Source: a virus
DNA: 64,000 bases
Virus record (IMG/VR): IMGVR_UViG_3300027749_000055
Location: 32,001-96,000 of that record
Direction: 5' to 3' (one strand)
Shown piece after piece: positions 17,508 through 47,632 of this stretch. Under the pieces are notes generated by a model. The model searched no databases, had not been told where the DNA came from, and worked only from the letters and a program-made list of their open reading frames with translations. Both the position numbers and the translations under genes were made by a program. The stretch's first letter is position 1; every line of letters begins with the position of its first letter.

Positions 17508-18325
17508 TTTCTCTCGGTAAAGAAGGATACCTCGCCCTCTTGGAAAACCTCGGTGGACTGCGGTTCAACAACGGTGGCAAACGTGGCGGTTTCGGCACTT
17601 GTGGCAGTGTTGTGGTCGGTTTGAGAACCCGTGGTCAGGAACTCGGTAAAAAGAATCGGGCTGGTGAGAATGATTTGAGTGACGTAAGCCCACACGCTCG
17701 TCGCTTGGGTGAGCGCAGCCTGCCCGTCCTTGCTAAATACCGCCCGTTTAATTGCGGTGACGGTCTGAGACAACGCCGAGGACACGTTTTGAACCCGTCG
17801 AACAGCCCTGACGGACGATACGGCTTGCGTCTCCGAAGCAGAACCAACCACTTTATGAACAACCGTTTTAGCACCCCTTGTGGCTTGTGATTCGGCATTG
17901 GCGGAACGACGAACCAGCGTTCTAGCCGCCGTGCCGACAGCCGATTCGGTTTGTGTTTCAATGCCAACCTGCGTGTGAATGGTTGCACGATTGGAAACGG
18001 TTGCTTCCGCAAGTATTTCTGAGCCAAGGCGGATTTTGACGGTGTTGGTATTTCCCAACGCCGATTCCAAAAGTGGATTCGCCCCAGAACGACCCAGAGC
18101 GGTGTTTTTACCACCATTGACCGCTTCGGTTCCCGCCACAGAATTCGAGCGAACCAATACAAGTGTGCGTGTTCCAATTGCGCTTTGTAGCAAACTTGCT
18201 ACGCCGACGACGTTGTAAGCGGTTCCCGAAAACGAGATTCCGTAATACAAGCCAGAGAAGGGCGTGTTGCCTCCGCCGTTGTAGAGGGTGCTAAAAACTC
18301 CGTAGGTAGGTTTGGTTATGGGCAT
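17492..18325 (-). CDS. Putative virion structural protein
   Basis: 277 aa Thr/Ala/Ser-rich ORF in the structural operon. Confidence 0.6.
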   Translation of the reverse strand: MPITKPTYGVFSTLYNGGGNTPFSGLYYGISFSGTAYNVVGVASLLQSAIGTRTLVLVRSNSVAGTEAVNGGKNTALGRSGANPLLESALGNTNTVKIRLGSEILAEATVSNRATIHTQVGIETQTESAVGTAARTLVRRSANAESQATRGAKTVVHKVVGSASETQAVSSVRAVRRVQNVSSALSQTVTAIKRAVFSKDGQAALTQATSVWAYVTQIILTSPILFTEFLTTGSQTDHNTATSAETATFATVVEPQSTEVFQEGEVSFFTERKWNNS

Positions 18326-18340
18326 AGCCCGTCACCAGCC

Positions 18341-18997
18341 TTAGTTGCTCATCAACCAAGTAGGCGTGAAGTTCAACGAGTCGTTGGGGGTCAAAACGGG
18401 GCTAGAAGCGTCCGCAAAGTTGGCTGCGTAGAGGGCGGTTCCACCCGACAAAGCCGTGGCAATAAAGAAGCCGTTAGCCGCAGTCCACGTTCCCTGAGCC
18501 GAGAAGACCGAGTTCGAGGCAGGAACGGACTTCATACCCGTCACAGCGTCACCAAACGTCACCGTTGCGCCGTTGGATTGGTTCGAGGCAAGGGGCGACG
18601 AGAGAACGACTTGGTTTCCGACAATGGCGGTCACGACCTTGACGGACTCCGTGCCGACCACAATGCTCATACCGACGGTCAGCGTTTTACTACTTGGGGC
18701 AACGCTGGTAAGGGTCACAACTTGAACGCCAGCGAGGACTGCGCCGTTGAGGGTCGTAGTTCCAAAAGGCGTGGTGTAAGAGGTGGCGACAGCGGGGGTT
18801 CCGTAAGTAACAGTCTGACGAGCGTAGTTCTGACCCGAAACCTCAACAATCGCAGGGGAACCGCCCGCCGCTGGAACTGTCGTGCCAGAAAGACTCGTAA
18901 ACAAACCAACATACAACTGCGAGTAGGTCACAGGGGAAGCCGTGATGACCTGATTGAACAGGACTGTAAGACCGCTATTGAGGAAAACCTGTGCCAC
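18341..18997 (-). CDS. Putative minor tail/fibre-associated protein
   Basis: LYVGLFT...EVSGQNYARQTV...GTWTAANGFFIATALSGGTALY motif common in small phage fibre/baseplate proteins; has an internal beta insertion. Confidence 0.65.
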   Translation of the reverse strand: MAQVFLNSGLTVLFNQVITASPVTYSQLYVGLFTSLSGTTVPAAGGSPAIVEVSGQNYARQTVTYGTPAVATSYTTPFGTTTLNGAVLAGVQVVTLTSVAPSSKTLTVGMSIVVGTESVKVVTAIVGNQVVLSSPLASNQSNGATVTFGDAVTGMKSVPASNSVFSAQGTWTAANGFFIATALSGGTALYAANFADASSPVLTPNDSLNFTPTWLMSN

Positions 18998-19053
18998 GCA
19001 TACTCCTAGGGGACGTTATTCTCCCCCTAGTCTGCCACAAAGTTTGGAAAAAC

Positions 19054-19305
19054 CTACTGTGCGGGCGGGGTGGCTGGCTCAGGCAAAGCGGCAAGTTCTT
19101 CGATGTGAACCTGCAGGGCCTGGTCGAGGTTGGCAATCGAAGCCGTGGCATAATCAACGGCATTGGTATCGCCCGTGAGTTCGGCAACCTTCAGGTTCAG
19201 GCTGTGCTGGTAAGCCTCAGCCGCAAATTGCTGAATTCGCTGGGTCAGAAGTTCACGCTTCTGGTCGTCGGTAAGAAGTGCTGAGTAATCCATAGATTTC
19301 ATCAT
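19054..19305 (-). CDS. Hypothetical helical protein
   Basis: 83 aa ORF downstream of the tail fibre. Confidence 0.6.
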   Translation of the reverse strand: MMKSMDYSALLTDDQKRELLTQRIQQFAAEAYQHSLNLKVAELTGDTNAVDYATASIANLDQALQVHIEELAALPEPATPPAQ

Positions 19306-32190: not shown

Positions 32191-32465
32191 GCTTGGAACG
32201 TCTCCTTTTCGTGCGATTCGACCAGCAGGTTCTCAATGTAGGTCGGCAAGTCTTTGTCGGAAATACCAAGGTGAGCCGCCAAGCGTCCAGCCGTGAGGTG
32301 AAAAGCGGTGCGATACAAATCCCGCTGTTCGTGAATTTCCTCGATAATTTCCTTTTGAACCTGTCCAGCCAGCGACACAAGGTGCAGGCTGTTGGTCAGT
32401 TCGGCGTTCGACTTGCTCATTCGCTCGACGGACTCGACCAAAGATTTCACTAAAGACTTCTTCAC
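32187..32465 (-). CDS. Hypothetical protein
   Basis: 92 aa helical ORF with coupled start/stop. Confidence 0.55.
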   Translation of the reverse strand: MKKSLVKSLVESVERMSKSNAELTNSLHLVSLAGQVQKEIIEEIHEQRDLYRTAFHLTAGRLAAHLGISDKDLPTYIENLLVESHEKETFQA

Positions 32466-33694
32466 TTGCCCTCCTTCATTTTTCCCTTGATGTAGCGAAC
32501 CAAATCCTTCAAGTAAGCCTTGATGTGCGGGGGCGCAAGCCGTATTGCCTCTTGAAACATCTCAACCGCCCTCTTGTCGTTTTCCAACCCAAGATAGCAA
32601 AATCCCAAACGCTCATACGGGGCGTAAGAATACAAAACCACATTGGTCGGGAACGAAACGTCAGGCGGACACTTCATTCCTGTAATGGCAGTGTAAAACG
32701 GAATGGCGTTTGTCCAATCCTCTTTGGTGTAATACAAATCGCCCAAGTCCCACCACGGCTCAGCGAGGGTCGGGTGGTCGTGGATTGACCGAAGAAGCGA
32801 CGTAATCCCTTCTTCTATTTTTCCAACTTTGATTTGGCACTTGCCGAGATAGCGATAGATATCGGCAATTGGGTATTCTTCGCCGTAGCCCTTAGCGACA
32901 AACTCTTCCAAAATCGGCAGGGCTTCTTCGTAGCGTTCAAGGACAATGAGTTCCCGTGCGTAAAGGAAAAATAAGCGGGGGTAGTGCCCCATAGCCAGAG
33001 CCTTCTTCATTACTTCAATATTGCGAAGTGCGCCGTTTTCCGAACCGCCGTCGTGGTCTACGACAATTAGCCCCTCTGCCTTTACGGAAACGCCTTTGTC
33101 GGTCACAAGAAATTCGTGGATTGGCTCAATCCATCGCAAAGACGGAATTCGTCGTGCTACTCGGCTTCCCCAAATCTGCTTGGTGACGTTGCCGTGCTGG
33201 TCGTGCGTTCGATTCAAAATACCCCAAATCAACTCCACGTCGGAATTGGAAATATCGGACTCTTTAAACTTTTTGAACCATTGAATAGTGAAATCTGGCA
33301 GGGTATCCCCTGTGTCGAGCCAGAATGTCCAATCCCCCGTGCATTTTGACAAGGCAAAGTTTCGGGCGGCGGAGAAATCGTCCACCCACTCAAAATCAAA
33401 GACTTGCGCCCCGTAGGATTCGGCAATTGCCTTTGTATCGTCCGTCGAGCCGGTGTCCACCACGATTATCTCGTCCGTGAACGAGGTTACGCAGGCAAGC
33501 GTCTGCCCAATTACGTCCGCATTATTGCGGGCAATCATATGAAGGGAGAGTTTCATTGTTTTTTCGATAAGTATTTTTCCGGCACTAACCCCGTGTAGCG
33601 GTGTCCGTTCGCTTGGTGCGGGAAGGGGAACTTGGTTCCGCACATCTGGCAAATGACGTAAACGGTATTTCCGTTCGCCGTCATCAAAATCCAA
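32462..33694 (-). CDS. Family 2 glycosyltransferase with TPR repeats
   Basis: EIIVVDTGSTD.T..IA...GA.V..F.WVDDFSAARNFAL...TGDW.FWLD, IHE, followed by TPRs; true start possibly 33556 (MKLSLH). Confidence 0.9.
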   Translation of the reverse strand: MDFDDGERKYRLRHLPDVRNQVPLPAPSERTPLHGVSAGKILIEKTMKLSLHMIARNNADVIGQTLACVTSFTDEIIVVDTGSTDDTKAIAESYGAQVFDFEWVDDFSAARNFALSKCTGDWTFWLDTGDTLPDFTIQWFKKFKESDISNSDVELIWGILNRTHDQHGNVTKQIWGSRVARRIPSLRWIEPIHEFLVTDKGVSVKAEGLIVVDHDGGSENGALRNIEVMKKALAMGHYPRLFFLYARELIVLERYEEALPILEEFVAKGYGEEYPIADIYRYLGKCQIKVGKIEEGITSLLRSIHDHPTLAEPWWDLGDLYYTKEDWTNAIPFYTAITGMKCPPDVSFPTNVVLYSYAPYERLGFCYLGLENDKRAVEMFQEAIRLAPPHIKAYLKDLVRYIKGKMKEGK

Positions 33695-34210: not shown

Positions 34211-34627
34211 TTACCAACCGTGACCGCAGCCCCATTGGTCAGGAACGTAATCGGGAACGCCACCGTGCGCCTGTATGCGACGAGCCACAACGACTTGCTC
34301 TTCGGGCGTTGCGTCAGCGGCGTTCCAAGCGAACTCACCACCGCCGAAGCGAATCCAATTGTAGTTAGTGATTCCCAAGCCACCGGAATAGAGCGAGCCT
34401 TGGACGTGCCAATTCCCGCCTTCCTCGCATTGGTTCACCCGTTCCCACTTAGCCATAATCTCAGGCGAGACGAGTGGTGGTGGGGTCGGTGGTGCAACCG
34501 TTGTGGTGGTGGCGACGACAGGCACAGTGGTCGTGGCGACGTGAGCCTTACTCGCTAAGTGATTCGCTGGGAAGACCCCAGCGGTGGCGGTGAGGACTAC
34601 ACAGAGTCCTCGAACCAGCACCCTCAC
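34211..34627 (-). CDS. rpf: Resuscitation-promoting-factor (Rpf)-like secreted transglycosylase
   Basis: Signal peptide, Thr/Pro linker, WERVNQCEEGGNW...YSGGLG....W...GG...A..ATPEEQVVVA...W.C Rpf motif. Confidence 0.85.
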   Translation of the reverse strand: MRVLVRGLCVVLTATAGVFPANHLASKAHVATTTVPVVATTTTVAPPTPPPLVSPEIMAKWERVNQCEEGGNWHVQGSLYSGGLGITNYNWIRFGGGEFAWNAADATPEEQVVVARRIQAHGGVPDYVPDQWGCGHGW

Positions 34628-35027: not shown

Positions 35028-38000
35028 TTACTCAGCCACCGTTTCGTAGTTCCATTTGTCCCTACCGCCCAATAAGACTATCTCACGCTCACTATAGCAA
35101 CCCAACCCCGTTTCAGCACAGGAAAAGACTCGGCTAGCGGGCGCAACGCCGGAGAGAACCATACCTTTATAGTCACTCCCTTGGGTCGAGAAAGTGCCGT
35201 CGGCAAACTTTTGGGCAACAATTGAGTCATACGAGAACGAACTCAGGGGACGGGTGGCGATTTCGGGGAATCCGCCAGCACCCGTGATTTCATTGAATTC
35301 GTCTTCGAAAAATTCCATACCTCGATACAGCGGGACTTGGGTAATACCGTTCTTGGCAAGGTAGCCCTGCGTCTCGTCGTATTGAGCACGGAGAAAGGCT
35401 CGGTAGAGGTCGCCATTTTTGCTGTATTCGTCGTCTACTTTGTTGCCGTCTTCACCTTGCCATTCAGCCGTTTCCTTCAGACCAAACTCTTCGGCGGCGG
35501 CTTTTTGAATCGCCAAATTCTTTGTGGTTTCGTTTGAACCAATTGCCCACAAACTTACAAGTGCGCTTGCGCCAAGTTCGGCAAGCCGTTGCTTGATTCG
35601 AGGGTCGTCGCCGTGAACAACCTCAGTGCCATTTTCAACCGCTTGGTCTGCGTCGGATTCTTTCAAAAGATAGGGTGCTTCAAAACCTTCGTCCCCAATG
35701 CTTCTAAAGGTGTAGAGGGAGTCGTGGTCGAAATAAACCTGTGGCACAACATCAAAGTCGCCCGCAATAAAACCCTGTTCCAATAAATAAAACCGAGGGC
35801 AAGCCGTAGCAAGGCGGTCAGCCCATTTGTCCCCCATACGAGCGGCAATATTTTCCGCCACTTTTTGCTTCAGTTCGGGCGCAACTTGTTCTGAATCTTC
35901 AGGTTCCATTGAGTCACGGTCAAAATCTTCGCCCTCGATTGCCACGCCAAGTTTGTCTACGAGTGGAACCATTGCGTCGTAGGAATCAACGTGTGGGTCA
36001 ATTTTCCCAAGGGATTCCCTGTGTCGTCCTGAACCAGGCCCGCCCTTGCGGACAGAAATCAACTTTGTGTAGTCAGGATTACTTGTAGATTTGGTGATAA
36101 ACACTTTGTTAGGCTTTCGCCAGACGGTATCTTCAAAACCCATAACACGGTTGTATTTGGGGTCTAGGCTTTCAGCAAAGTTCTTTCCCGCTTGTGAAGC
36201 AAAGCCACCGTGCAAAATTAAGGGCTTGTCCCCCATCATTTTTATTTGGTTTCGCATAGCGTCCACCATTTTGCGAGCAATACCCTGACCACGCACTTTT
36301 TCATCGGTCTGAATGTGCCAGATTTTCACCACAGGGCCTGCGATGTTTTTGTCACCCCAGTCATAGTGCGCTTTCGCTTGACCGATGATTACACCGTCTT
36401 TGTTGCGAACTTCCATACCAATACGGTCATCATTACCGTATTTTCCGTCACTAAGCAATCCTTCGTCAGCCGTGATTTTGTATTCATTGCCATTCTCGTC
36501 TGTGAAGGTTCGTTCGCCCTCACCCGTCTTAGTCCACTGATTACCCTCAGGCTTACGACCCGAACCAGGCCCGCCCTTACCAATCTCGACGGGGCTATGA
36601 CCCTCTCCTTGGTCGGCGGTGAAGCGAGACTGCTTGGCTTCTTGGCGATTTGATTCCGCCTTGGCTTCTAATTGCGTCTTTTCACTACCCTGCGCTTGCT
36701 TGGCGGCTGTCGAGTAAAGACGAGCGGCTGATTCGTGAGCAAAAGCGGCTGAATCCCACTTCTCCTTACGGCGCAAGTCCCACGCCCGTTGCTCAGCAGT
36801 TTGAGCGGCTTGCAAAGATTTGGAAACGTTTTGGCTGTTTTTTTTGACTTCTTTTGCTTGGTCTTCTTCAAATTGTGCGACAATTGCTAGGTAGTAAAGA
36901 CGAGAGGCTTCGGTTTCGTTGCCATTTTCTTGCTCACGCTTGGCTTCTTCACGCAGTTCCGAGGCGGTCAGGTCGCCGTCTTTTGACCGAGCGGCTATTT
37001 TTGCAACATCAGCGATTTTACTATCGTCAAGAACCGTAATGTAGTTGGCGTTTGGAACTACTGCCGATAGGTCGTAGACAAGGCTGTGGTTCTCATCACT
37101 ATAAGTGCCTTCGCCTTCGTTCACATAGTAATAACCATTTTTGGCGTTGTTTCTGGTAATTTGCCCACGCATACGGCTATTGGCTTGGTCATCACCAACG
37201 GGCGACCACACGCTGTTTTTCATACTTCCCGTAATAATCACGGGGGTAATATCGGGCTTGCTGTCCATAGCGATAGGGGTTCCGTCGGAGTAAACCGCTT
37301 CGCCTTGGTGGTCGGCGGGGTAGTGGGGAATTTGCGCCCAATCGTCCTCAGCACCGTAGCCAGCACCCGTTGAGACGATAAGCGTCTTGCCGTATTCCTC
37401 GGTTCCGTCCCAATCCTTACCGTCAGCCCGTCTGCCAATTCGTGCTTCAAGTGCGTCCTTTGCGGCTTTGTAGCCCCCAACGTGAACGCCGTAAGAGGCT
37501 TGTTTGAGTCCGATTTTGCCATTTGGAGAGCCGTGCCAAAAAACAGCGTGTGATTCTCCGTCGGGGGTGGTAATCATTTCGGGAAGGGCGTAAGTCAATT
37601 CGCCCCAGAGTCCGCCCAAAAATTTTCCGTATCGCTTTGCGCCATTTTCTTTGTGCCTACCGCTGCCCGGCCCACCCTTTTCCACCTTGTCCAACTGAGC
37701 AACAACTTTCTTTGCCCACGAATAACCAGCGTCTCCGCCCCACGCATACCAAGCAACCTTGCCTGGGCTGGGTTCGTTCCAATGCGGGCTGTCCTTGTCG
37801 CCTTGGTGACGGTCAAAATACGCCTTCATACGGCGAATGGTGGTTTCCGATACTGACGTACCACGGGCGAGGTCTGAGGCTCGCTTGCGTCCAACGGGGG
37901 TGAAGCCAGAGCCAGCCTTGCCGTCTTTGAGCCATTCCAACGCTTTTTTTCCAGCGTCTTGAACGCCCTGCGGGGGTGAGAACGTGTCGGATTTTTCCAC

Positions 38001-38696
38001 GACGGCGAGGGCTTGAAACGCCTCAATCAACTTGCACAAGTTTTGGTAGAGGTTGATGAACTTTTCTTCCATTCCCACAGATTCAAAGAAGTGGCTGAGG
38101 GTAATGATTTTGCAAAGGGTGAACTGCAAGGATTCTTCGTCTACGCCTCGGTTCCAAAGTTCCGCTACAAACTCCGGCGAAGGGGTGCGAGGACGGAAAT
38201 TACACAAAGCGTGGTCAATGCCCACAATGCGCCCGTCGGAGGTAAAGATGACGTTCTTGGGTCGGCGGTCAGAGTTGGCGGTCAGGTAGTCAAAAAGACG
38301 CAGAGCGGTTCCCTGAGCGTTGTCGGGAATCTCCTTGTCTGCGTTTTTACCAGACTCGCCTTCAATGTAAGGCATAATCACCGTTGTAGCGTCCATAGAG
38401 GTAAAGAAGCAGTCTCGGACAGGTGCGTTCATTGCTTCGCCTACACGGGCAGCCAACCACTCCTGCGTGGCAAGGAGTGGTGCGGGGTAGAAGCGACCCG
38501 TCTTATTACCAACCCAATCCTTCAGGACTTTCTCCACGCCGCCAGAGCCGTCGGCAAAAATGACGAATTGGAAACCGTTATTTTGCTTACCCCCGAAGGT
38601 TCCCTCTAGGGGGTTGCGTCGAACTATGTTTGTATTGGTAAATGTAACAAAATTAGGCTGGAAAGTGCCGTCCACGGCTAACCCCGATTCAGCCAC
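35028..38696 (-). CDS. Polyvalent multi-enzyme protein: PI3/4-kinase(HipA)-like + ADP-ribosyltransferase-like + GNAT + ADP-ribosyltransferase
   Basis: FDYLTANSDRRPKN...GIDH (kinase); FWHGS...GVHVG...YYVNEGEG (H-type ART-like); RGQGIARKM (GNAT); LYRGM...LSSFS...EREIV (R-S-E ART); modules separated by three KGGPGSGR motifs. Confidence 0.75.
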   Translation of the reverse strand: MAESGLAVDGTFQPNFVTFTNTNIVRRNPLEGTFGGKQNNGFQFVIFADGSGGVEKVLKDWVGNKTGRFYPAPLLATQEWLAARVGEAMNAPVRDCFFTSMDATTVIMPYIEGESGKNADKEIPDNAQGTALRLFDYLTANSDRRPKNVIFTSDGRIVGIDHALCNFRPRTPSPEFVAELWNRGVDEESLQFTLCKIITLSHFFESVGMEEKFINLYQNLCKLIEAFQALAVVEKSDTFSPPQGVQDAGKKALEWLKDGKAGSGFTPVGRKRASDLARGTSVSETTIRRMKAYFDRHQGDKDSPHWNEPSPGKVAWYAWGGDAGYSWAKKVVAQLDKVEKGGPGSGRHKENGAKRYGKFLGGLWGELTYALPEMITTPDGESHAVFWHGSPNGKIGLKQASYGVHVGGYKAAKDALEARIGRRADGKDWDGTEEYGKTLIVSTGAGYGAEDDWAQIPHYPADHQGEAVYSDGTPIAMDSKPDITPVIITGSMKNSVWSPVGDDQANSRMRGQITRNNAKNGYYYVNEGEGTYSDENHSLVYDLSAVVPNANYITVLDDSKIADVAKIAARSKDGDLTASELREEAKREQENGNETEASRLYYLAIVAQFEEDQAKEVKKNSQNVSKSLQAAQTAEQRAWDLRRKEKWDSAAFAHESAARLYSTAAKQAQGSEKTQLEAKAESNRQEAKQSRFTADQGEGHSPVEIGKGGPGSGRKPEGNQWTKTGEGERTFTDENGNEYKITADEGLLSDGKYGNDDRIGMEVRNKDGVIIGQAKAHYDWGDKNIAGPVVKIWHIQTDEKVRGQGIARKMVDAMRNQIKMMGDKPLILHGGFASQAGKNFAESLDPKYNRVMGFEDTVWRKPNKVFITKSTSNPDYTKLISVRKGGPGSGRHRESLGKIDPHVDSYDAMVPLVDKLGVAIEGEDFDRDSMEPEDSEQVAPELKQKVAENIAARMGDKWADRLATACPRFYLLEQGFIAGDFDVVPQVYFDHDSLYTFRSIGDEGFEAPYLLKESDADQAVENGTEVVHGDDPRIKQRLAELGASALVSLWAIGSNETTKNLAIQKAAAEEFGLKETAEWQGEDGNKVDDEYSKNGDLYRAFLRAQYDETQGYLAKNGITQVPLYRGMEFFEDEFNEITGAGGFPEIATRPLSSFSYDSIVAQKFADGTFSTQGSDYKGMVLSGVAPASRVFSCAETGLGCYSEREIVLLGGRDKWNYETVAE

Positions 38697-39013
38697 TCGT
38701 CAAATGAGGTCACAGTCGGTTCGGTGGTGGTGGTGGTGGTGCTGGGTTGCCACGGCGAAGTCAGCGGGGCGAGACAGGTTGAGCAGGATTTTGCCACGGC
38801 GTTTGTCGCAAACTTACGCTTGCCGTTGGCGGTCTTCTCAATGTCCGTCGGGGCGACACGGGAGAGATTTTGGTGTCCGTTGGGGCACTTGGTAGTGAAA
38901 AGTAGGGCGTCAGGGGCGGTGTAGTTCAGCCCACGGTATTCACCCTTGTAAAACTCTTGATAAACGCCACCCTTGCCCAGAAGCGACGCACTCGTAAAGT
39001 CGTTTGCTTCCAT
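38678..39013 (-). CDS. Small Zn-ribbon protein
   Basis: Likely start MEANDF at 39013; CPNGH...CSTC. Confidence 0.6.
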   Translation of the reverse strand: MEANDFTSASLLGKGGVYQEFYKGEYRGLNYTAPDALLFTTKCPNGHQNLSRVAPTDIEKTANGKRKFATNAVAKSCSTCLAPLTSPWQPSTTTTTTEPTVTSFDEWLNRG

Positions 39014-39246
39014 TATTGAGCGTCCTCGCTTTGCCAATTTTCTTCGGAACTGTCGTCTAGGTCGGAATTGGAAGTGAAAACCGAGGTTACGGTTCCCTCG
39101 CCCAACCAGCCCCATTCTTGCGAACCGTCGGGAGTATCGTCCCAAGTGGGGCGACCCATAAACGCAGGCATTTTCCCACGCTTGTCCTCTTTGGCAACGT
39201 CAAGTTGGTATGCGGCAAGCACCCACTCGTAAATTTCGTTGCTCAT
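39013..39246 (-). CDS. Small acidic hypothetical protein
   Basis: MSNEIYEW...; coupled to the next gene. Confidence 0.5.
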   Translation of the reverse strand: MSNEIYEWVLAAYQLDVAKEDKRGKMPAFMGRPTWDDTPDGSQEWGWLGEGTVTSVFTSNSDLDDSSEENWQSEDAQ

Positions 39247-39308
39247 CAGAACTCCCACGGACTAGAACTACAGCCCCAATCTACCTTACGGTTGAAGGGA
39301 AACTGTGT

Positions 39309-41024
39309 TTAGCCGTAAACAACGTCGCCGTAGAAGACGAGTTGCCAGAAAGCGTCGTTTCCGATTGCGTCGGTGTCGTCCAGCGCACCAAGTCGTCCGG
39401 CATACTTATCGTTGTATGCAGAGTAGGCACGGGCAATGTCGCTCATATTGGCAGTCTTGACTGCTGAGTGGTCGCCGTCGTCTCCCTTTTCGGGGTCGTC
39501 GCACTTCGCCGTGAACGTAACCTTCGACCAATCATCAGTCGGGCTGGGCTTGCCGTCTTCTCCAAGGACATTTTCTTGGGATTCGTAACCAACGGTTCCG
39601 GTGTCCTTGCCGTTCGAAATCTTGATTTCGCCAAACCAACTGCCCCAATACGACATATTGCTGCACACTCCGTCGAGCAACTCACGGGCGTTCACGGGGG
39701 TTGGAATAGTCATCTTGTCGCCATTGAAGGCGGGGGCGGCTTGACCCATTTGGCTGCTGATACTCGGACTAGCCGTTTCGAGTTCCGCTAGGTCAAGACC
39801 TTCTTCGTCCGCAACAATCTTGATTGCGTCGTTGATTGCGTCCGACAACTTCCCAGACGATTCAAGAAGAGACATACCGTTGTCGTCGCCCAAATATTCG
39901 TGGTCTGAGTCAGTGAGGGCGTAGTAAGGCCAATAATCAGGCATTTGCTCGTCCTGCAAGGCGGACAACTTTTCGTCAGTGTCGAAACCGGCGGCAATCA
40001 GTTCTTCGCCGTCTTGGGCTGCGCTGCCATTGGGAAGGGGTTGATACAGTTCGTGTTCACTGCTAACCAAGTATTTTCTACCTGACGGGGCGGTAATGGT
40101 AGCCATTGTTGCGCCCGCAGGTTGAAACTCTGCCCACTGACGGTCAGGGTTTACGTCTTCGTTTATCTTCAACTTCATTCCCTTGGGGAGAGAAAATGAA
40201 GAAGCGTCTAGCGTTGCGCCCTCAGGCTTACGACCCGAACCAGGCCCGCCCTTGCGAACCTTAGACTTGGCATACTCCGAAGGAACGTTACCTTCCCATT
40301 GTTCCGGCATTTCACTAGGGTCTGCCTTGACGAGTGACGCAATTGCCCTGTCGGTGGTTGCGTTTGCTTCCTCAGCGTTGGAAATAGCGTCGCCGTGGTC
40401 GTTTAGTGCGCCTTCTTCGTCGCCACCCTCGAACTTTTGAACGGCGGAGTTGGCGAGTTGTGAAGCCAGCGAGTGCAACTCGGCAGCCTGACCAAAGAGA
40501 GCCGAGGCACTGTTGAGGTCACGACCTGCCTGACCATTGGTGACGAGCGACCGTTGGAACAGTTCATTCTCATTGCCCTTGCAAATGTCCGCAAGGCGGG
40601 CAGACTCGTCTGCCGCTTCCTTCAGTTCGTCGGTGTCTTGGGCGTATTGAATAGCGGTGGGCTGCATACTTGCCGACATTTGGATATCGCCCGTCGTGTA
40701 TGCGCTAGGACGACGACCCGAACCAGGCCCGCCCTTAGAGACTTCCTCGTCCGGCCAGACACCGTTCACCGGCAGAACGTAGTAGTCGTCGTAGTGGTGT
40801 TCGGAGTATTCGGGGTCGTCCTCGTCCGGCATTGGGTCGTTCTCGTAGATGTGACTCCAACCGTCCTCGAATGAGGGGAAAGTCTTGCCACCGAAAAGGG
40901 TGTTGTTAGCCCAATCCTTGATGTGGAAAAGGGTCTTGGTGCGACCACTGCCCGGCCCGCCCTTGGTGAGCGGGAACTCCGCCTCGTTTATGAGGTTATC
41001 GGTAGTAAAGGGGTTGTAGGTCAT
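39309..41024 (-). CDS. Modular putative internal head protein (3 KGGPGSGR motifs, acidic modules)
   Basis: 571 aa; motifs at 40964, 40736 and 40253. Confidence 0.7.
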   Translation of the reverse strand: MTYNPFTTDNLINEAEFPLTKGGPGSGRTKTLFHIKDWANNTLFGGKTFPSFEDGWSHIYENDPMPDEDDPEYSEHHYDDYYVLPVNGVWPDEEVSKGGPGSGRRPSAYTTGDIQMSASMQPTAIQYAQDTDELKEAADESARLADICKGNENELFQRSLVTNGQAGRDLNSASALFGQAAELHSLASQLANSAVQKFEGGDEEGALNDHGDAISNAEEANATTDRAIASLVKADPSEMPEQWEGNVPSEYAKSKVRKGGPGSGRKPEGATLDASSFSLPKGMKLKINEDVNPDRQWAEFQPAGATMATITAPSGRKYLVSSEHELYQPLPNGSAAQDGEELIAAGFDTDEKLSALQDEQMPDYWPYYALTDSDHEYLGDDNGMSLLESSGKLSDAINDAIKIVADEEGLDLAELETASPSISSQMGQAAPAFNGDKMTIPTPVNARELLDGVCSNMSYWGSWFGEIKISNGKDTGTVGYESQENVLGEDGKPSPTDDWSKVTFTAKCDDPEKGDDGDHSAVKTANMSDIARAYSAYNDKYAGRLGALDDTDAIGNDAFWQLVFYGDVVYG

Positions 41025-41033
41025 AATAAAATC

Positions 41034-41852
41034 CTATCTCACAATCTTCTTTAGTTCAGCCTTGATTTCCTTCGCCTTGTCTCCACGCCACGTCGAAGCG
41101 TTGGCGAGGAAGTAATTGACGATTGACTTTGCGGAGTCAAGTCCATACTTGTCCGTAACGTCGTTTAGGTCGCCCATAGCGTCGAGGTAGGGCTTTGCGC
41201 CAAAGAAAACCTTGGAACCCCAATCACGGCGAATTTCTGAAGCGATTTCACTGAGGGGGCGGTGTCCCGATTGGGTCATATTTCCAGCCTCAGCAGTGCG
41301 TCCCGAACCCGGCCCACCCTTTTTGACGGACATAGCGTCGAGTTGAGCAATGGCGGAGTCAAGAGCCTTACTCATATCCTTGGAAAAATCCACCCAACTT
41401 TGAGGGGTTTCGGGGTTATCAAGACGTTCTTGTGGCGAACCCCAACGCTTGTAGTCCTCGTTTATGTCGTAAAGAAAGCCTGACCATTCTTCGGGAGTCT
41501 CAATCTTGCTCACTCGCTTGTCGTTGAGATACATATCACGGTCAGAAACAATTTCGTCAAGTTCTTCGTGGTTAAAGTTTTCCTTCAGAACGTTAGCGAT
41601 AGCAACGTCCGTGGTTCCAAGGCTCTTTTCCCATTGGTTGCCACGGAACGGGTGTCCGCCCGCTTCGCCCTTTTGGAAACGCTCTGCCTTTTGGAAGAAC
41701 AGTTCAAGTTCGACAGGTGAAAAAAGTTCAGACACAGCAAACGTAGACTTGTGAACCTTCGCACCACGCCGAGGGCGAGGCTTGCGAGTAGTTGAGCGTG
41801 ACGACTTACGAGCCGCCTTTGCCATAAAGTCTTCTAAGCGTTCTTCGGACAC
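41034..41852 (-). CDS. Modular putative internal head protein (KGEAGGHPFRGNQW and KGGPGSGR motifs)
   Basis: 272 aa; two modules, each preceded by a Lys-Gly motif. Confidence 0.7.
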   Translation of the reverse strand: MSEERLEDFMAKAARKSSRSTTRKPRPRRGAKVHKSTFAVSELFSPVELELFFQKAERFQKGEAGGHPFRGNQWEKSLGTTDVAIANVLKENFNHEELDEIVSDRDMYLNDKRVSKIETPEEWSGFLYDINEDYKRWGSPQERLDNPETPQSWVDFSKDMSKALDSAIAQLDAMSVKKGGPGSGRTAEAGNMTQSGHRPLSEIASEIRRDWGSKVFFGAKPYLDAMGDLNDVTDKYGLDSAKSIVNYFLANASTWRGDKAKEIKAELKKIVR

Positions 41853-41884
41853 AGTTTTTGCCTTTCTAGCAGTGAAATACAGGA

Positions 41885-43096
41885 CTAGGCGGACATAAAG
41901 CCGGTGTCGCCCATAACCCGACTCGTTTCACCACGGGTGGGGCTGGTCGCTGCTTCAGCGGAAATTCCAGCCTTCTCACGGCAAACGCCAGCCAAGTGCT
42001 TCGCACCATACGCCATATTACGAGCGTCGGCAGCCTTTTCCTTCCACTGCTCACCAAGTGCAGCGTCAGCGTCCTTGTGACCCTTGGCAGCCCATTCGAG
42101 GTGAGTGCCACCGAAACCGTGGGCGTGACCCTGAGCCAACATAAGCAACTTCGACGCTTCGTCATACTTCTCAGCAGCCTGAGCGTAAGTGTCCTTGCTC
42201 TTGGTCTTGTCGGCTTCGCTACGCAACTTGTCGGCAGAACGGAGAGCCTCACGACCAGCCTTGAAATTAGCCTCGTAGCCAGCCCCGTAGTTCTTGTTAC
42301 GGGTCTTCCAGCCAACACGGACGGTCTTGCCCTCAGGAGTCTTCTCACGGGTGTTTACAAGTTCGCCTGTGTGCTGGTTGGCACGACCACCACCGTCGCC
42401 CTTGTGACGACCTGAGCGACCCTTCACGCCATACTTGGTGACGTTGATGTAGGACTGAAATCCCGCCGACTTTTGGAAGTCACGGGTAAGAAGCGAAGAA
42501 GTGCTGAACGACTTAGAAAAATCTTCGTCCTCGTCGTAGTAGGTGTCCTCAGCCTGTGCAGGGAAACGACCCATTTGGCTTTCGTGAACCAAACCGTCGT
42601 TCAAACCTGAGCAGCACGGGCACGACGAGTCGCCGTCACCGAAGCAAAGGGGGCACATAACCAAAACGGCTTCCTTGGCAAACTTCATTTCAATTCCTTT
42701 CGCTGCGGGCGCAGACTTAGTAATTTGGGGGGTTGATTCGCCCTTGGCAAAGTCACGCAGACCGCCAAGGATTTCCGAAGCCTTGGTGAACATTTCACCA
42801 GCCGCTTCGTGTGCCTTGTCTGCCTCACGGAAGCCAGCAAGTGCGTTGTTGTAAGCCTTCTTCAACTCGGTGGAGTTCCAAGCGTTCTTAGCCACCGCCT
42901 CGAAGTATGCGATTTCGGTAGCCTTCAGGTATTCCGTAGCCTTTTGGAGACGGAATGAGGTGTTTTCCAATTCGCCACGGGCGACCACTTCGTCACGGCT
43001 CGCTTTAGCAATTTGAGTGGCGGCGAGAACGGGGTCTGCTGAACCCTTCTGCACAAACGAGACAGTCTTGGGGGAACTGTTGGGAACCTGAATCAT
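41885..43096 (-). CDS. Modular putative internal head protein (variant KYGVKGRSGRH motif, CxxC/CxxC finger)
   Basis: 403 aa; Ala-rich helices; CPLCFGDGDSSCPCCSG; preceded by the TTCCAA-N9-TAGCAT promoter motif. Confidence 0.7.
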   Translation of the reverse strand: MIQVPNSSPKTVSFVQKGSADPVLAATQIAKASRDEVVARGELENTSFRLQKATEYLKATEIAYFEAVAKNAWNSTELKKAYNNALAGFREADKAHEAAGEMFTKASEILGGLRDFAKGESTPQITKSAPAAKGIEMKFAKEAVLVMCPLCFGDGDSSCPCCSGLNDGLVHESQMGRFPAQAEDTYYDEDEDFSKSFSTSSLLTRDFQKSAGFQSYINVTKYGVKGRSGRHKGDGGGRANQHTGELVNTREKTPEGKTVRVGWKTRNKNYGAGYEANFKAGREALRSADKLRSEADKTKSKDTYAQAAEKYDEASKLLMLAQGHAHGFGGTHLEWAAKGHKDADAALGEQWKEKAADARNMAYGAKHLAGVCREKAGISAEAATSPTRGETSRVMGDTGFMSA

Positions 43097-43155
43097 TGGA
43101 AAAATCCTTTCGGTTGTTCGTGAAAATGCTACACCGCACTTTGGAAAAAGGCGGT

Positions 43156-44316
43156 CTAGTTACCCTCTGCTTCGGAAGCGGCGTGTGAAGAGTCGGCTGC
43201 GCCGAATGAAGCACCGTCAGCGTCGTCGTGCAGGCTGTTCAAATACTCGTCTTCTTCGTCATCTGAGGTCTTCCACGCTCGACGGTGTGCCTCGGCTGCG
43301 TAGTGGTGCTCTTGAGCGGCTTCACGGTGCGCCTTGGCTACTTCCGGCTTGCCAGCAACGTCGGCGGTCTGAGCGAGGATTTCGTGTTCCTTGGCAAGAC
43401 CTTCGTGCTGTCGAGCGGCTTCGGCGGTGTAGGCGACCATTGTGTCGTCTGAGAGTTTGTCGGCTCGGTCAGCAATGTCCTTGGAAGCCTTCTTGGTGTA
43501 ATCAGCGTCCTTGCCGGAGTCCTTTTTACCACCGCTGGTCTTGGACGAATTGCCCTTCGAACCCTTTGGGTAACGACCCGAACCCTCACCGCCCTTGGTG
43601 ACGGAGGCTGAGGCTGACCGCATAGCGGCTGACTGCATAACGGGGGCTAGTGAGCGTGAAGCGATGGTTTGGATATAGTCGGCAACATTTTCGGCTGCGT
43701 ATCGCTTTGCGTTTTCCAAAGTAGGCCCGACGGGAGTGTGTTCGAAAAACTTGCTTGGCTTCCCAGCCTCACTGACGGTGAAATAACCGCTGACGTAACC
43801 ACGGGCGGGACGACCATTATCGCCAAGTGATTGCTGACTACGGTAGGTAATCGTCAAATCGTGACCAGCAACGGCAGCACCTTGGGAGTCGCCATTCTTC
43901 ATTTGGGTCAGTGAGCCAACAAAAAGTCGAATCGGGGTCATTTCGAGGATATTTGCACCCTCGGCGTGACGACCTGAACCCGCACCACCCTTGGCGACCA
44001 TATATTCACCGTTGTAGATAAGGGTGGACTTGTCGTTAGCGTCCATACCAGCACCAAACATTGCGCCAGCGGCTTCGAGCAGTTGGGCACGGTTGGCGGG
44101 GTTCACCTCGACGGCTCGAACAAGGTCATCACGGCAGGAAAAGAACTCCGCAGAAGCGGTCAGCATAAGGTTGCTCGCCTCACGGATTTCACCATTGGCG
44201 TAAGCGGCTTCGGCAAACTTCATCAACGACGCACCGAGTTCAGCCTTCTTCTGAGCGTTAGCAAGCACCGAGTTCAGGCTGGCTGCGCCGTGATTCTTAT
44301 TGACATTCTTCATCAT
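43156..44316 (-). CDS. Modular putative internal head protein (KGGAGSGRH, KGGEGSGRY)
   Basis: 386 aa; C-terminal His/Ala heptad module. Confidence 0.7.
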   Translation of the reverse strand: MMKNVNKNHGAASLNSVLANAQKKAELGASLMKFAEAAYANGEIREASNLMLTASAEFFSCRDDLVRAVEVNPANRAQLLEAAGAMFGAGMDANDKSTLIYNGEYMVAKGGAGSGRHAEGANILEMTPIRLFVGSLTQMKNGDSQGAAVAGHDLTITYRSQQSLGDNGRPARGYVSGYFTVSEAGKPSKFFEHTPVGPTLENAKRYAAENVADYIQTIASRSLAPVMQSAAMRSASASVTKGGEGSGRYPKGSKGNSSKTSGGKKDSGKDADYTKKASKDIADRADKLSDDTMVAYTAEAARQHEGLAKEHEILAQTADVAGKPEVAKAHREAAQEHHYAAEAHRRAWKTSDDEEDEYLNSLHDDADGASFGAADSSHAASEAEGN

Positions 44317-44322
44317 TTTTCC

Positions 44323-45237
44323 TTACGCTTGACCGTCACGACGGACGGCTTCTTCAAAGTCTTTGTCGGCACGGGCGGGAACGCCTCGAAGGTCGGCTGC
44401 CTTGGCACTGCGCTGAACCCACGACGGGTGAAGGGTGGAAACATCACGGAGTGAAGCCGCAAGTCCACCGTGGCGAAGGTTGGCAGAACCGTGTTCCTTG
44501 ATTGCTTTTTCCAAAGAAGGCAGGACTTCGGGCGATACTTTGTCTCGCATAGCCATAAGAGCCTTTTTCACGCCGACGTGTGCGGCGGCTACGTCACGGT
44601 GGTAGGCGTAAACCTCGTCCTCGTCACGCATATTGTGAGGCTTACCCAACTTGCTGTCCAAAAGAGTCTTGGCGTTCTTGTAGTTGTCGTAGCCGTGAGG
44701 GGTGCGACCAGAGCCAGGCCCACCTTTACGGAGAGCCGACTTGTGGGCGTATCCAAAGTAGCCACTCAGGTCAGCGACGGGAGGCTCGACGGTGGCGGGG
44801 GGTGCGGTGGGCATTTCACGCTCAATGAGGTCAATAAGGCTGTTGGTCACATCTGCGCTGTCTCGAAAGAGACGAGCGGTGTCGTAGTTGTCTACCATTG
44901 AGTGAAAGTATGCGTCGTTACGCATTTTGCTCACATCTTCACGCATTTCGGCAATGTGCTGGCTCAAAGGCTTCGAGTATGCCGCCTCAATGCGGTCTGC
45001 CATTGAGGTAGCAGTGCGACCAATTCGTGCATTTTGACGGCGAACCTGACCAATAATCGTGTCGCCGTATTCGGGCTTGTATCGGTTGCCGAGAACGTCG
45101 GTCTTGGGTCGCTTGCCGGTGCGGGGGGAGTCCCAATCGTTTGCCTTGGCTTCGGCGGCGATAGCACGAAGACGGGCAACCGCTTGTGCGTGTCGCCCAG
45201 AGCCAGGCCCGCCCTTAGTGAATTCGAACTTAGACAT
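44323..45237 (-). CDS. Modular putative internal head protein (2 KGGPGSGR motifs)
   Basis: Likely start MSKFEFTKGGPGSGRH at 45237. Confidence 0.7.
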   Translation of the reverse strand: MSKFEFTKGGPGSGRHAQAVARLRAIAAEAKANDWDSPRTGKRPKTDVLGNRYKPEYGDTIIGQVRRQNARIGRTATSMADRIEAAYSKPLSQHIAEMREDVSKMRNDAYFHSMVDNYDTARLFRDSADVTNSLIDLIEREMPTAPPATVEPPVADLSGYFGYAHKSALRKGGPGSGRTPHGYDNYKNAKTLLDSKLGKPHNMRDEDEVYAYHRDVAAAHVGVKKALMAMRDKVSPEVLPSLEKAIKEHGSANLRHGGLAASLRDVSTLHPSWVQRSAKAADLRGVPARADKDFEEAVRRDGQA

Positions 45238-45239
45238 AA

Positions 45240-45698
45240 TTATCCTTCCAAAGAAACAGAGAGTTGCCACGCCCACTTGGAGTGAGCGTCAATTCGGTCT
45301 GCCAAAAAGTTAGCAATGCCTTGCTCGTTGAGCGATGTTGCCATATCAAAAGCGTCCTTCAGGCTTTCCAAAACGCCTTCATTTGTGCGAAGAAGGTCGT
45401 CCACAAGGTTCTGGGCAGTGAAATCGTCTACGGGGCTGTTGTCCACCGAAGAAAAGGCGGTGAGCGCAGAAAACGTAAAGGGTGCAAAAACACCGACCTT
45501 GCGAATGTTCTCCGCTAAGGGGTCAATGCTGTCGTAAACGTCCTCGTAGATTTCCTCAAACTTGCTGTGCCACTGCGGGAAGTCACCACCGACCACGTTC
45601 CAATGGAAGCCGTGGACACGGTGATACATAATCGTCACATTGGCTAAGCAGGTGCTTAGCAAGTCCCCAAGGGGTGCGCTCTCCTTACGAATACGCAT
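45240..45698 (-). CDS. dps: Dps family ferritin-like protein
   Basis: HGFHWNVVGGDF.QWH.KFEEIY......D.LAE.IR...HSKWAWQL Dps signature. Confidence 0.92.
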   Translation of the reverse strand: MRIRKESAPLGDLLSTCLANVTIMYHRVHGFHWNVVGGDFPQWHSKFEEIYEDVYDSIDPLAENIRKVGVFAPFTFSALTAFSSVDNSPVDDFTAQNLVDDLLRTNEGVLESLKDAFDMATSLNEQGIANFLADRIDAHSKWAWQLSVSLEG

Positions 45699-45700
45699 TT

Positions 45701-47632
45701 TTACGCCGAACGAGGGCGACGAATCACTGCGCCTTCACGCAGAGTCCTGTCGTTGATTGCCTGACGGAAAGCGTGTGCTACTTCGCTCGCAGATTCCGCA
45801 GAACGAATGGTTTTTTCAGCGACGTTGGCTGCCTTGTCTGCCTTGTCTGCAAGACGCTGACCATCAACCGAATCGGGGTCGCCACCCTTGCGGAGAAAGC
45901 GAGAGTAGTCATTAGCGGTCTTAGAAGCCTCACGCATTGCACGACGACCCATATGCGTTGCTTCGTAGACCTTGCCAGCGGCTTCACCCAAGTTGGTGTT
46001 CGTCATTGAGTAGAAACGCTTGGGCGACTGCAGAAGGTAGGTAGCCATAGTGCCGTGGAACGAGGCTTCGTGCAGGTGTTCTTCAGCCTTTCCATACTCT
46101 CCACGGTTCACCAATGCACGGGCGGCTGCAATGTGGGCGGCTGCGGCTTCGAGGTGCTGACCGTGGTTGAAGTTTTCAGTGCCAGGCCGAATGTCAAAAG
46201 TTACGCCTTGACCGTGAGCCGAGGTCTTGCGGTTGCCACGGAAGCGCAACTTTTCGTTACTGCCTTCTTCCCTGTGGCGACCTGAGCCCTCACCGCCCTT
46301 ACGCACCTTCGACTTGTTGAAAACAATGGCGGGTTCGCCCATTTCGTTTTCAATGGTGAGGCACTGAACGGCAAGGTCACGGAGACGAGCGGCCTCACGG
46401 GAGGCTGCGCCAATAGCGTCACCGTCACCGAAGGGCTTGAACTCGCTAACCAAAAAGTCGTAGAAGGTGGCGGACTGACGGAAGACCGTAGCGGCGGCTA
46501 CGAACATTCCACGCTCAACCAGAGCGTCAGCCTCGTCTTCCAATGCAACAGCCGTATCAACGAGGTCTTGCACATTTGATTTGTTGATTTTTATTTGTCC
46601 TCCTACGGACTTAGTTATCGAGAATTCGAGGTGAACTGCGTCGTCGTCACCGACAACGGCGGTCACGCCGCCACGGCCAAAATAAGATTGAACTGCGTCG
46701 GAGAGTTCCTGACCATTGGGAATGTCTCTATCCCAGAAGCCAGTACCGTGACCGTTGGCGGTCAAAACAATGTCGTCACCAATGTTTTCGTCGGGCAGAC
46801 CCGATTGTTCAAGGGCGGCAATGTTGTCGCCAACAAAGTCAAAAATTGCGTCGCCCAAAGCGTTAGCGTCTCCACGGTCAAAGTCGTCAATACTGTAAGT
46901 TCCGTCCAAGAACCCACTCCATTCGTCGCCGTCGTCGGGCATAGTCTCAGTGGCAAGAAGCGCACCAAGCGCATTGCGAGTAATAACTTGCAGGTCAAAG
47001 ACACGTCCGTCCAAAGTCTTCAACTTGGGGAGATTGCCGTCCAAAAAGGTCGTGGTTCTTTCGGGGTGTCGTCCTGAGCCAGGCCCGCCTTTGGCAACTA
47101 CTTTGCTGTCGGGGTCGTTGTATCCAAGGAAGAGTGAGCCGCCAATGTAAACCTTGTCGCTTTCATTTTTTTGCGACAACTTTTCTGCGTCGAGAGTGGC
47201 AACGGTGGCTGCTTTGGAAGCCGCTGAAACTTGGCTAGAGGTTGCCTTGGGTTTGTCGAAGCCAGCGAGAGCCTGCGCCTCTGGTGTGGTGGGTTGTGCC
47301 CACTCGCCCATTTTGTTAGCGATAGTAGCCGCCGCCTTGTAGTGAGCGTCAGCGGCGGCGAGGTTTGCCCGAACTGCACGGTCATCACCAGCCGTTGCTT
47401 GTGCAAGTTGCTTGTGCAGGTCAGCCATAATTTCGTGCGCTTCAATAGCGGCGTTCGCTTGGTCGGGAGTAAGGTTCTTGGCATTTTCCAGAACAAGGTT
47501 AGAGAGACGAACTGCCTCGCCGCCCAAGGTTTCCTTGGTGTGAGTTGAACCCTTGGGGTAGCGACCTGAACCTGCACCGCCCTTGGCAACGTTGAGCCAT
47601 TGCTCAACCGTTTTAGTGAAACTGTCCGTCAT
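45701..47632 (-). CDS. Modular putative internal head protein (3 KGG[APE]GSGR motifs)
   Basis: 643 aa; motifs at 47584, 47092 and 46300; includes an LTANGHGTGFWDR module and His/Ala helices. Confidence 0.7.
   Translation of the reverse strand: MTDSFTKTVEQWLNVAKGGAGSGRYPKGSTHTKETLGGEAVRLSNLVLENAKNLTPDQANAAIEAHEIMADLHKQLAQATAGDDRAVRANLAAADAHYKAAATIANKMGEWAQPTTPEAQALAGFDKPKATSSQVSAASKAATVATLDAEKLSQKNESDKVYIGGSLFLGYNDPDSKVVAKGGPGSGRHPERTTTFLDGNLPKLKTLDGRVFDLQVITRNALGALLATETMPDDGDEWSGFLDGTYSIDDFDRGDANALGDAIFDFVGDNIAALEQSGLPDENIGDDIVLTANGHGTGFWDRDIPNGQELSDAVQSYFGRGGVTAVVGDDDAVHLEFSITKSVGGQIKINKSNVQDLVDTAVALEDEADALVERGMFVAAATVFRQSATFYDFLVSEFKPFGDGDAIGAASREAARLRDLAVQCLTIENEMGEPAIVFNKSKVRKGGEGSGRHREEGSNEKLRFRGNRKTSAHGQGVTFDIRPGTENFNHGQHLEAAAAHIAAARALVNRGEYGKAEEHLHEASFHGTMATYLLQSPKRFYSMTNTNLGEAAGKVYEATHMGRRAMREASKTANDYSRFLRKGGDPDSVDGQRLADKADKAANVAEKTIRSAESASEVAHAFRQAINDRTLREGAVIRRPRSA

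Follow-up and report, generated by a model that had tools for sequence, protein, structure and literature searches.

A repeated K-GG[PAE]GSGR junction in modular proteins beside phage head genes: a candidate head-protease site joined to a conserved tag

Why should six otherwise unrelated genes, lying directly downstream of the portal and head maturation protease genes of a phage, carry the same short Gly-rich peptide over and over? The question is raised by positions 35028 to 47632 of a 64,000-nucleotide stretch of viral DNA, here called the window (bases 32001–96000 of the 113,659-bp IMG/VR virus record IMGVR_UViG_3300027749_000055; coordinates are those of the window unless marked genome). 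The peptide, K-GG[PAE]GSGR, was taken in the original prediction for a processing and packaging tag of capsid-cargo polyproteins. A regular-expression search of the six-frame translation recovered exactly 14 in-frame copies, at the very Lys codons that had been predicted, all on the minus strand and all inside six long open reading frames (ORFs) between 35028 and 47632 (Table 1). The residue two positions before the Lys (−2), described earlier as nearly always hydrophobic, was found to be V, I, L or F in 14 of 14 copies. Both variant junctions that had been pointed out are present, one reading INVTK-YGVKGRSGRH near 42435 in a 403-amino-acid (aa) protein and the other, KGEAGGHPFRGNQW at 41672, FQK-GEAGGHPFRGNQW in a 272-aa protein; no further match was found in the window by the six-frame search. 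The upstream neighbours were also correctly recognised, with matches to Portal_Mu (9e-33) and to Peptidase_S78_2, the XkdF-type family (9e-10). The best supported answer, to which we give about an even chance on comparative sequence evidence, is that these genes encode cargo polyproteins which the head protease would cut after hydrophobic-x-Lys, the rest of the peptide being retained as a tag.

The motif had been thought to be confined to this block, which held within the window but not genome-wide. The whole genome carries 38 copies of KGG.GSGR, all in frame and on one strand, of which 14 lie in the window block, one in a small gene (genome 20914–21513) and 23 in a second block, giving 24 copies outside the window. 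The second block, about 18 kb long and far from the head genes, spans the junction of the record (genome 10726 to 1589 and on from 112636 to 105722) and encodes ten further modular proteins, with modules that include GNATs, DUF3626, a pentapeptide-repeat and one with HExxH. The two ends of the record (genome 1–145 and 113515–113659) repeat about 145 bp with a one-G difference in a G-run, so that the record closes into a circle or has terminal repeats, despite its 'linear' label. Motif proteins account for about 31 kb of about 114 kb, about a quarter of the genome, with some 55 modules and 38 junctions; the 38 modules that follow a motif have a median length of 175 aa. As a chance control, the genome was dinucleotide-shuffled 30 times and the residues of the motif proteins were shuffled 200 times, and neither set gave a single copy. 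A hydrophobic residue (V, I, L or F) stands at −2 in 38 of 38 copies of this genome and in 26 of 28 foreign copies. The logo reads hydrophobic-x-K-GGPGSGR-H-P-E-G and is mostly internal in the proteins; 11 of the 38 copies have A, E, V, Q or K where the logo has Pro, and many junctions carry K-S-x-hydrophobic-x-K upstream.

The motif delimits evolutionary modules, which have been reshuffled between polyproteins, blocks and phages. When the motif proteins were cut at the Lys and the pieces compared by BLASTP, homologous pieces aligned from the first to the last residue of the module, across proteins, blocks and phages, which bears out both the predicted position at module boundaries and the expected variability of the flanked modules. 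The last module of a 950-aa second-block protein is 67% identical to the second module of the protein that follows the protease in a related phage (G001), and a 275-aa protein of phage G003 ends in a module with 61% identity to an internal one of a 1005-aa protein. The 1222-aa window protein corresponds to a 770-aa G001 protein (3232–5544) with one extra module, placed exactly between two motifs. None of the Pfam or PHROG matches runs across a motif. An AlphaFold2 (AF2) model of the 643-aa protein was computed from a single sequence, and its overall confidence is low (mean pLDDT 48); it sets each of the three motifs in coil or in low-pLDDT stretches that separate helical bundles of pLDDT 75–93. 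Many motif proteins begin with a short leader ending in hydrophobic-x-K immediately before the tag. The first motif stands at residues 12–22 in 11 of the 18 motif-bearing proteins of the genome, and in a twelfth if this is started at an internal Met. Two conserved leader classes were distinguished, MxNPFSTxxLLxxxxxYPVxK and MxDRIxKxxExWxxEIxK, the former (the NPFST class) being found also in phage G003. The presumed cargo is encoded either as single modules behind a leader of 12–22 residues or as chains of up to seven modules.

Module exchange exactly at the motif would also be produced by a recombination joint acting at the DNA level, with the peptide tolerated as a flexible linker and recognised by nothing. 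Such a joint could further draw on the second Gly codon, which is GGG in 29 of the 38 copies compared with 10% of Gly codons genome-wide. However, all six codons are in use for the motif Ser as well as for the motif Arg, and codons across copies vary freely, so that selection acts on the peptide; relatives, moreover, use all Gly codons. The GGG bias is explained otherwise: GATC and GGWCC (GGACC, GGTCC) have zero occurrences in 113,659 bp, where hundreds are expected, which looks like restriction-site avoidance, and the second Gly of the tag is nearly always GGG before CCN because GGWCC is absent from the genome. The peptide is also identical in phages from 36% to 55% GC, and a neutral linker would not retain eight or more residues together with a hydrophobic −2. 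The recombination joint is therefore disfavoured, and we regard it as very improbable.

Within any one protein or phage GG is always preceded by the same residue, which differs between lineages, being Lys in most and Ala/Gly, His or Phe in others, with the hydrophobic −2 and GGPGSGR kept in all of them. A comparison made by nature is available in the His type (G030 and G032), in which the cargo leaders end in (D/N)EIQH-GGPGSGR or WLSH-GGPGSGR. In both contigs one fusion protein combines an N-terminal S78 protease with the major capsid protein (L162 3741–5639 and L158 2991–4856, 35% identical), and the acidic linker between the two parts holds six to seven hydrophobic-x-H-(G/S/N/A) sites, which lack the GGPGSGR tag. 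In the G030 fusion, 9 of 10 His residues stand in a hydrophobic-x-H context, compared with 35% in the other ORFs (p = 6e-4), and the capsid part contains no His at all. The protease-capsid linker is the expected cutting place of HK97-type proteases. From this covariation of cargo and linker sites, the three residues before GG behave, at the sequence level, as a P3–P1 protease site that varies together with the phage. Hydrophobic-x-P1 is the rule for assemblin-fold proteases, as in T4 gp21 (L/I-x-E), the herpesvirus enzyme (V/L-x-A↓S) and HK97 gp5, with a cut behind Lys103. Ser104 is the first residue of mature gp5 (PMC5701804). By analogy, hydrophobic-x-K would be the site of the protease of the present phage, and hydrophobic-x-K is depleted inside its cargo modules (24% of Lys versus 32% elsewhere, p = 6e-5). 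As for the predicted cleavage after hydrophobic-x-Lys, comparison across phages, which is the evidence in this case, points to a cut just before GG by the head protease.

According to the favoured reading of head-protease processing, hydrophobic-x-Lys would be a three-residue site read by the HK97-type head-maturation protease (S78_2), with the cut falling between the Lys and the first Gly, and the invariant GGPGSGR followed by (H/Y)(P/A/K)(E/A)G would stay at the new N-terminus of each freed module. The genes would encode head-internal cargo of the polyvalent-protein kind, the chains of which would enter the procapsid and be cut at every junction; the window block would then yield about 17 mature pieces and the whole genome about 40, all of which would leave with the DNA. 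We infer the cutting, the cutting enzyme, packaging, ejection and the role of the tag; for packaging, ejection, DNA binding and any anti-defence role, the ground is analogy.

A link of the motif to head assembly is seen in several phages. The motif proteins of the window block follow portal and protease genes, a virion or packaging-gene context whose layout recurs in G001 and G027. In G001 the order is portal, protease and then motif polyproteins, as here, with portals 63–81% and proteases 56% identical. At L041 ~17975–19077 the portal gene of G001 has an extra stretch of about 1.1 kb that is missing from the portal gene of the present phage (910 versus 556 aa), possibly an intein or a mobile element. 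Independent lineages carry more weight than G001. The protease protein of G018 and of G023 contains the motif, which separates its protease domain from a C-terminal part; in G014 the motif stands at residue 7 of the gene after the protease, and in G025 the corresponding gene holds three copies, the product ending 20 residues beyond one of them. A MuF head-morphogenesis domain and a C-terminal enzyme domain meet at the motif in G020, a small ORF starting MKFIK-GGPGSGRHP abuts the protease gene in G008, and eight consecutive small genes, each consisting of leader plus motif, form a T4 internal-protein-like layout in G019. Proteins of the kinds known to be processed (scaffold, protease, capsid delta region) contain the site in G018, G023, G025 and G014, and in G030 and G032 it is found in the protease-capsid linker in its His form; in the genome described here the corresponding result is at most suggestive. 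An S78 or S78_2 protease was found in 8 of the 9 near-complete genomes with a bona fide Lys-type motif. The expected co-occurrence with XkdF proteases stands in part: classical S78 enzymes are found as well, and in two near-complete genomes no head protease is recognisable. Similarly, the expectation that the motif is confined to head genes agrees with the window block and with head proteins of other phages but not with the 23 copies of the second block.

The junction could alternatively be cut by another enzyme, either a zincin-type metallopeptidase module of the polyproteins or a host protease, in the cytoplasm or after injection. A candidate for the former is a second-block module with AHELGH (genome 6528–7619, L035, minus strand; AHELGHYAF in full), a possible zincin metallopeptidase; about 9 of 150 motif-bearing database proteins (~6%) have a plausible HExxH module, as does the MuF protein of G020. 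Metallopeptidase processing has moreover been proposed for polyvalent proteins by Iyer et al. (PMC5512222), and the Ala-type phages and the Lys-type G004, without a recognisable head protease, would fit such an enzyme. On the other hand, the HExxH module of this genome found no Pfam or PDB sequence support, and most motif proteins, as well as several motif-bearing contigs, have no such module. The His-type covariation ties the residues before GG to protease-capsid linker sites, and the motif also occurs inside protease and scaffold-like proteins. Cutting by another enzyme was accordingly judged unlikely, ranking above the recombination joint.

The distribution of the motif was followed in databases. 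DNA-pattern scans of IMG/VR gave about twenty other viral contigs with hydrophobic-x-K, the peptide and then (H/Y/K/R)(P/A)(E/A)G; the single matches G011, G012, G022 and probably G016 were judged to be due to chance. A motif hidden Markov model (HMM) built from 65 instances was run against 1.84 billion representative proteins and matched 186 at E <= 1e-3 and 43 at E <= 1e-10, with up to eight copies per protein. Some database proteins start almost at the tag (MAK-GG, MSA-GG). Among the relatives and database proteins examined, no cultured phage with the motif was found; in the cultured relatives by capsid and protease (Arthrobacter Laroyevirus and Microbacterium ValentiniPuff) the motif was absent from the half of each genome examined. 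The strict DNA pattern gave only two matches in 185,579 prokaryote genomes, both chance-like, with no hydrophobic −2 and in Arg-rich frames. A word-index search with the leader-motif sequence found nothing beyond its own query, and a protein with 8 copies (P0002) had no relative in IMG/VR. P0037, an Ala-type database protein with an InPase domain, has 34 related loci in IMG/VR, but these have only the InPase module in common with it and lack the motif. A protein-atlas look-up of the post-protease protein of G014 was uninformative. Literature searches found no paper that mentions the peptide, the GGPGSG matches being adenylate kinases and engineered linkers.

Several familiar identities for the peptide were tried and rejected. 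A Walker A or adenylate-kinase P-loop (GGPGSGKGT) is contradicted by Arg in place of Lys in 38 of 38 copies, by the lack of a following Ser/Thr and by the position in coil between unrelated modules; a 2A/StopGo sequence (D(V/I)ExNPG↓P) by the absence of NPGP and the replacement of the Pro in 11 of 38 copies. The sequence also spoke against a double-glycine leader, a ubiquitin-like GG and an AT-hook. The consensus of encapsulin cargo-loading peptides is of the GSL type and terminal, and it is not matched.

The constancy of the tag favours a further possibility, in which the peptide would not be cut at all and would serve as a loading or anchoring tag (like an encapsulin peptide, or as a phosphate- or DNA-binding Gly-rich loop), tethering the modules to the procapsid interior, the portal or the DNA, with hydrophobic-x-K as part of the binding epitope or hinge. 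GGPGSGR(H/Y)P is invariant across phages of differing capsid and protease families, or with none detected, which suggests a partner common to all; the database proteins that begin almost at the tag and the ferritin-like gene within the block point the same way. Yet the residue before GG varies with the lineage and the hydrophobic −2 is kept, as in a P3–P1 protease site, the GSL-type consensus is unmatched, a binding pocket conserved over unrelated capsid families is unlikely, and DNA binding is suggested by analogy. An uncut tag is improbable in our view, somewhat less so than cutting by another enzyme.

Cleavage by the head protease also has findings that weigh against it. Of the copies, 23 of 38 lie far from head genes. 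In the Ala-type phages G026–G029 (G027 being 91% complete) no match to S78, S78_2, ClpP, S49 or S77 was found, and the Lys-type G004 (80% complete) has no recognisable head protease; in such phages either the protease is unrecognised or the tag works without one. The motif proteins of the Ala type are classical polyvalent proteins (with ParB, Nudix and a DarB-like C-terminal domain) beside portal and coiled-coil scaffold genes. G001 is a relative, as its portal indicates, and its matching layout shows module turnover, not independent recurrence. In the scaffold-like protein of the present phage 12 of 19 Lys residues are in a hydrophobic-x-K context, compared with a 32% baseline, but the tape measure is similarly biased, which makes this enrichment uninformative. 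Cutting is deduced from comparison and packaging from analogy, and the ten database proteins that were looked up are all metagenomic. Finally, the seven to eleven invariant residues after the presumed cut exceed the need of a protease site. Since the tag is unneeded for cutting and is missing from the His-type linker sites, it has a second function of its own, which may be the primary one, common to phages with differing capsid and protease families; candidates are procapsid loading, DNA tethering and a need for a free Gly-Gly N-terminus. A bolder version, tentative and about half as probable in our estimate as head-protease processing, takes GGPGSGR(H/Y)P for a portable capsid-cargo tag used in many HK97-fold phages whatever their protease, the three residues before GG being an exchangeable, protease-matched adapter. 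Such a tag might load proteins into procapsids or tether them to packaged DNA for joint exit.

Compared with known systems, head-protease processing of these chains would be a variant of T4-type capsid-cargo processing combined with polyvalent proteins. Short N-terminal leaders with a hydrophobic-x-P1 site are found in the T4 internal proteins IPI–III and Alt and in the ejection proteins of phiKZ and SPN3US (PMC9026906, PMC5694885, PMC10052503). As in T4 and phiKZ, the genes lie near head genes and the cargo would be delivered into the host together with the DNA. Unlike T4, in which gp21 is an S77 enzyme with Glu at P1, the protease is of the S78/S78_2 (HK97/XkdF) type, the residue at P1 is Lys, with His or Ala in other phage lineages, a long invariant tag stands behind the presumed cut, and the modules are chained, up to seven here and eight elsewhere. 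From T4 and phiKZ processing and from polyvalent proteins the system differs in protease family, in P1 residue, in having a constant tag behind the cut and in scale. Polyvalent proteins (Iyer et al. 2017, PMC5512222) are likewise chains of multiple effector domains beside virion genes with rampant module shuffling, and chains here combine at least two unrelated effector-type domains, varying between relatives. The domains in common are GNAT in this phage and ParB, Nudix, InPase, MuF and DarB-like domains in other motif-bearing proteins. The same paper proposes processing by embedded zincin peptidases and, in text searches of it, describes no repeated junction peptide, in contrast to the single conserved peptide at every junction here; this genome has one HExxH module without family support and no MuF domain, and G020 has both MuF and HExxH. 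Like HK97 and herpesvirus maturation cleavage (removal of the delta domain; the assemblin M-site near the scaffold C-terminus), the system has a protease of the same fold family and a hydrophobic P3. The motif is also present in protease-scaffold linkers and, in G025, close to the C-terminus of the post-protease protein (20 residues away), and the protease-capsid linker of G030 and G032 has multiple sites. The HK97 and herpesvirus sites, however, are for shell maturation, whereas those here appear to be for loading and dicing of accessory cargo. With encapsulin cargo peptides the tag has in common that a short, conserved, Gly-rich peptide stands on unrelated cargo of an HK97-fold shell, and a ferritin-like gene is in the block; in contrast to those terminal, uncut peptides it is internal, repeated and behind a protease-like site.

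The features of the window are collected in Table 1. The protease consists of an acidic, Cys-rich N-terminal region of about 350 aa followed by the S78_2 (XkdF-type) domain at residues 364–484. The Dps/ferritin-like gene has a 60% identical copy at the equivalent place in G001, and its product may be a head-internal or DNA-protecting protein. The protein with leader MSKFEFTK probably starts at the ATG at 45237 rather than at the GTG at 45276. In the 403-aa protein, an internal leader-like copy (FSTSSLL...Y.NVTK) and a CPLCFGDGDSSCPCCSG cluster precede the decayed junction YGVKGRSGRH; the homologous stretch of G001 retains an intact tag. The recognisable cargo modules include GNAT acetyltransferases, a pentapeptide-repeat and DUF3626; most modules have no known family, and many are small and acidic or basic. 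The cargo block is followed by an Rpf-like transglycosylase gene (34211–34627) and a GT2-TPR glycosyltransferase gene (32462–33694), which together with the capsid relatives indicate a probably actinobacterial host. A 3505-aa ORF directly after the tape-measure gene (window 1–9351; genome 30834–41351) has no PHROG match. The large terminase (Terminase_6N, 1.3e-25; genome 100456–102071, plus strand) lies in a small opposite-strand cluster and is apparently split over two adjacent ORFs of 327 and 210 aa.

Table 1. Motif copies and genes in the window; the upper coordinate of each motif is the first base of its Lys codon.
Feature	Coordinates	Strand	Evidence or remarks
Portal, 556 aa	49669..51339	-	Pfam Portal_Mu 9.2e-33; phrog_113 1.4e-84
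Head maturation protease, 504 aa	48005..49519	-	PF14550 9.4e-10; phrog_3017; 56% identical to G001 protease
Motif polyprotein, 643 aa, 17-aa leader and 3 modules (K17, K181, K445)	45701..47632	-	
Motif VAK-GGAGSGR	47561..47584	-	
Motif VAK-GGPGSGR	47069..47092	-	
Motif VRK-GGEGSGR	46277..46300	-	
Dps/ferritin-like, 152 aa, without motif, inside block	45240..45698	-	Pfam Ferritin 2.1e-15
Motif protein, leader MSKFEFTK and 2 modules	44323..45237	-	
Motif FTK-GGPGSGR	45193..45216	-	
Motif LRK-GGPGSGR	44704..44727	-	
Motif protein, 386 aa, 3 modules (K109, K241)	43156..44316	-	
Motif VAK-GGAGSGR	43969..43992	-	
Motif VTK-GGEGSGR	43573..43596	-	
403-aa protein, degenerate junction (FSTSSLL...INVTK-YGVKGRSGRH) and Cys cluster	41885..43096	-	41% identical homologue in G001
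Motif protein, 272 aa (K178), with variant FQK-GEAGGHPFRGNQW	41034..41852	-	phrog_13953 match begins right after motif
Motif VKK-GGPGSGR	41298..41321	-	
Motif polyprotein, 571 aa, 21-aa NPF-type leader and 3 modules (K21, K97, K258)	39309..41024	-	
Motif LTK-GGPGSGR	40941..40964	-	
Motif VSK-GGPGSGR	40713..40736	-	
Motif VRK-GGPGSGR	40230..40253	-	
Small protein	38678..39145	-	Likely start 39013, giving MEANDFTSASLLGK-GGVYQ; leader-like N-terminus without full tag
Motif polyprotein, 1222 aa, 4 modules (K340, K707, K884)	35028..38696	-	GNAT in module 3
Motif VEK-GGPGSGR	37656..37679	-	
Motif IGK-GGPGSGR	36555..36578	-	
Motif VRK-GGPGSGR	36024..36047	-	
Helical scaffold-like protein, 259 aa	29281..30060	-	phrog_13547; upstream of 250-aa head protein and capsid gene
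Major capsid protein, 339 aa	27486..28505	-	phrog_1005 1.4e-92; 50-54% identical to Arthrobacter/Microbacterium phage capsids

Proteins that are carried in the head and injected are known for only a few model phages; with a signature present in at least 186 protein clusters, lists of such cargo proteins could be drawn from metagenomes. The phage described here is the extreme case found, with 38 junctions and about 55 modules over about 31 of 114 kb, and its modules are candidates for early host-takeover and counter-defence functions. The combination of a variable site with a constant tag amounts to a natural experiment on prohead-protease specificity, with Lys, His and Ala at P1, and the motif could offer a route to loading heterologous proteins into capsids. 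If the tag is portable, the injected proteome of uncultured phages could become readable from sequence, and phage heads could be loaded with foreign proteins by means of about 12 added residues.

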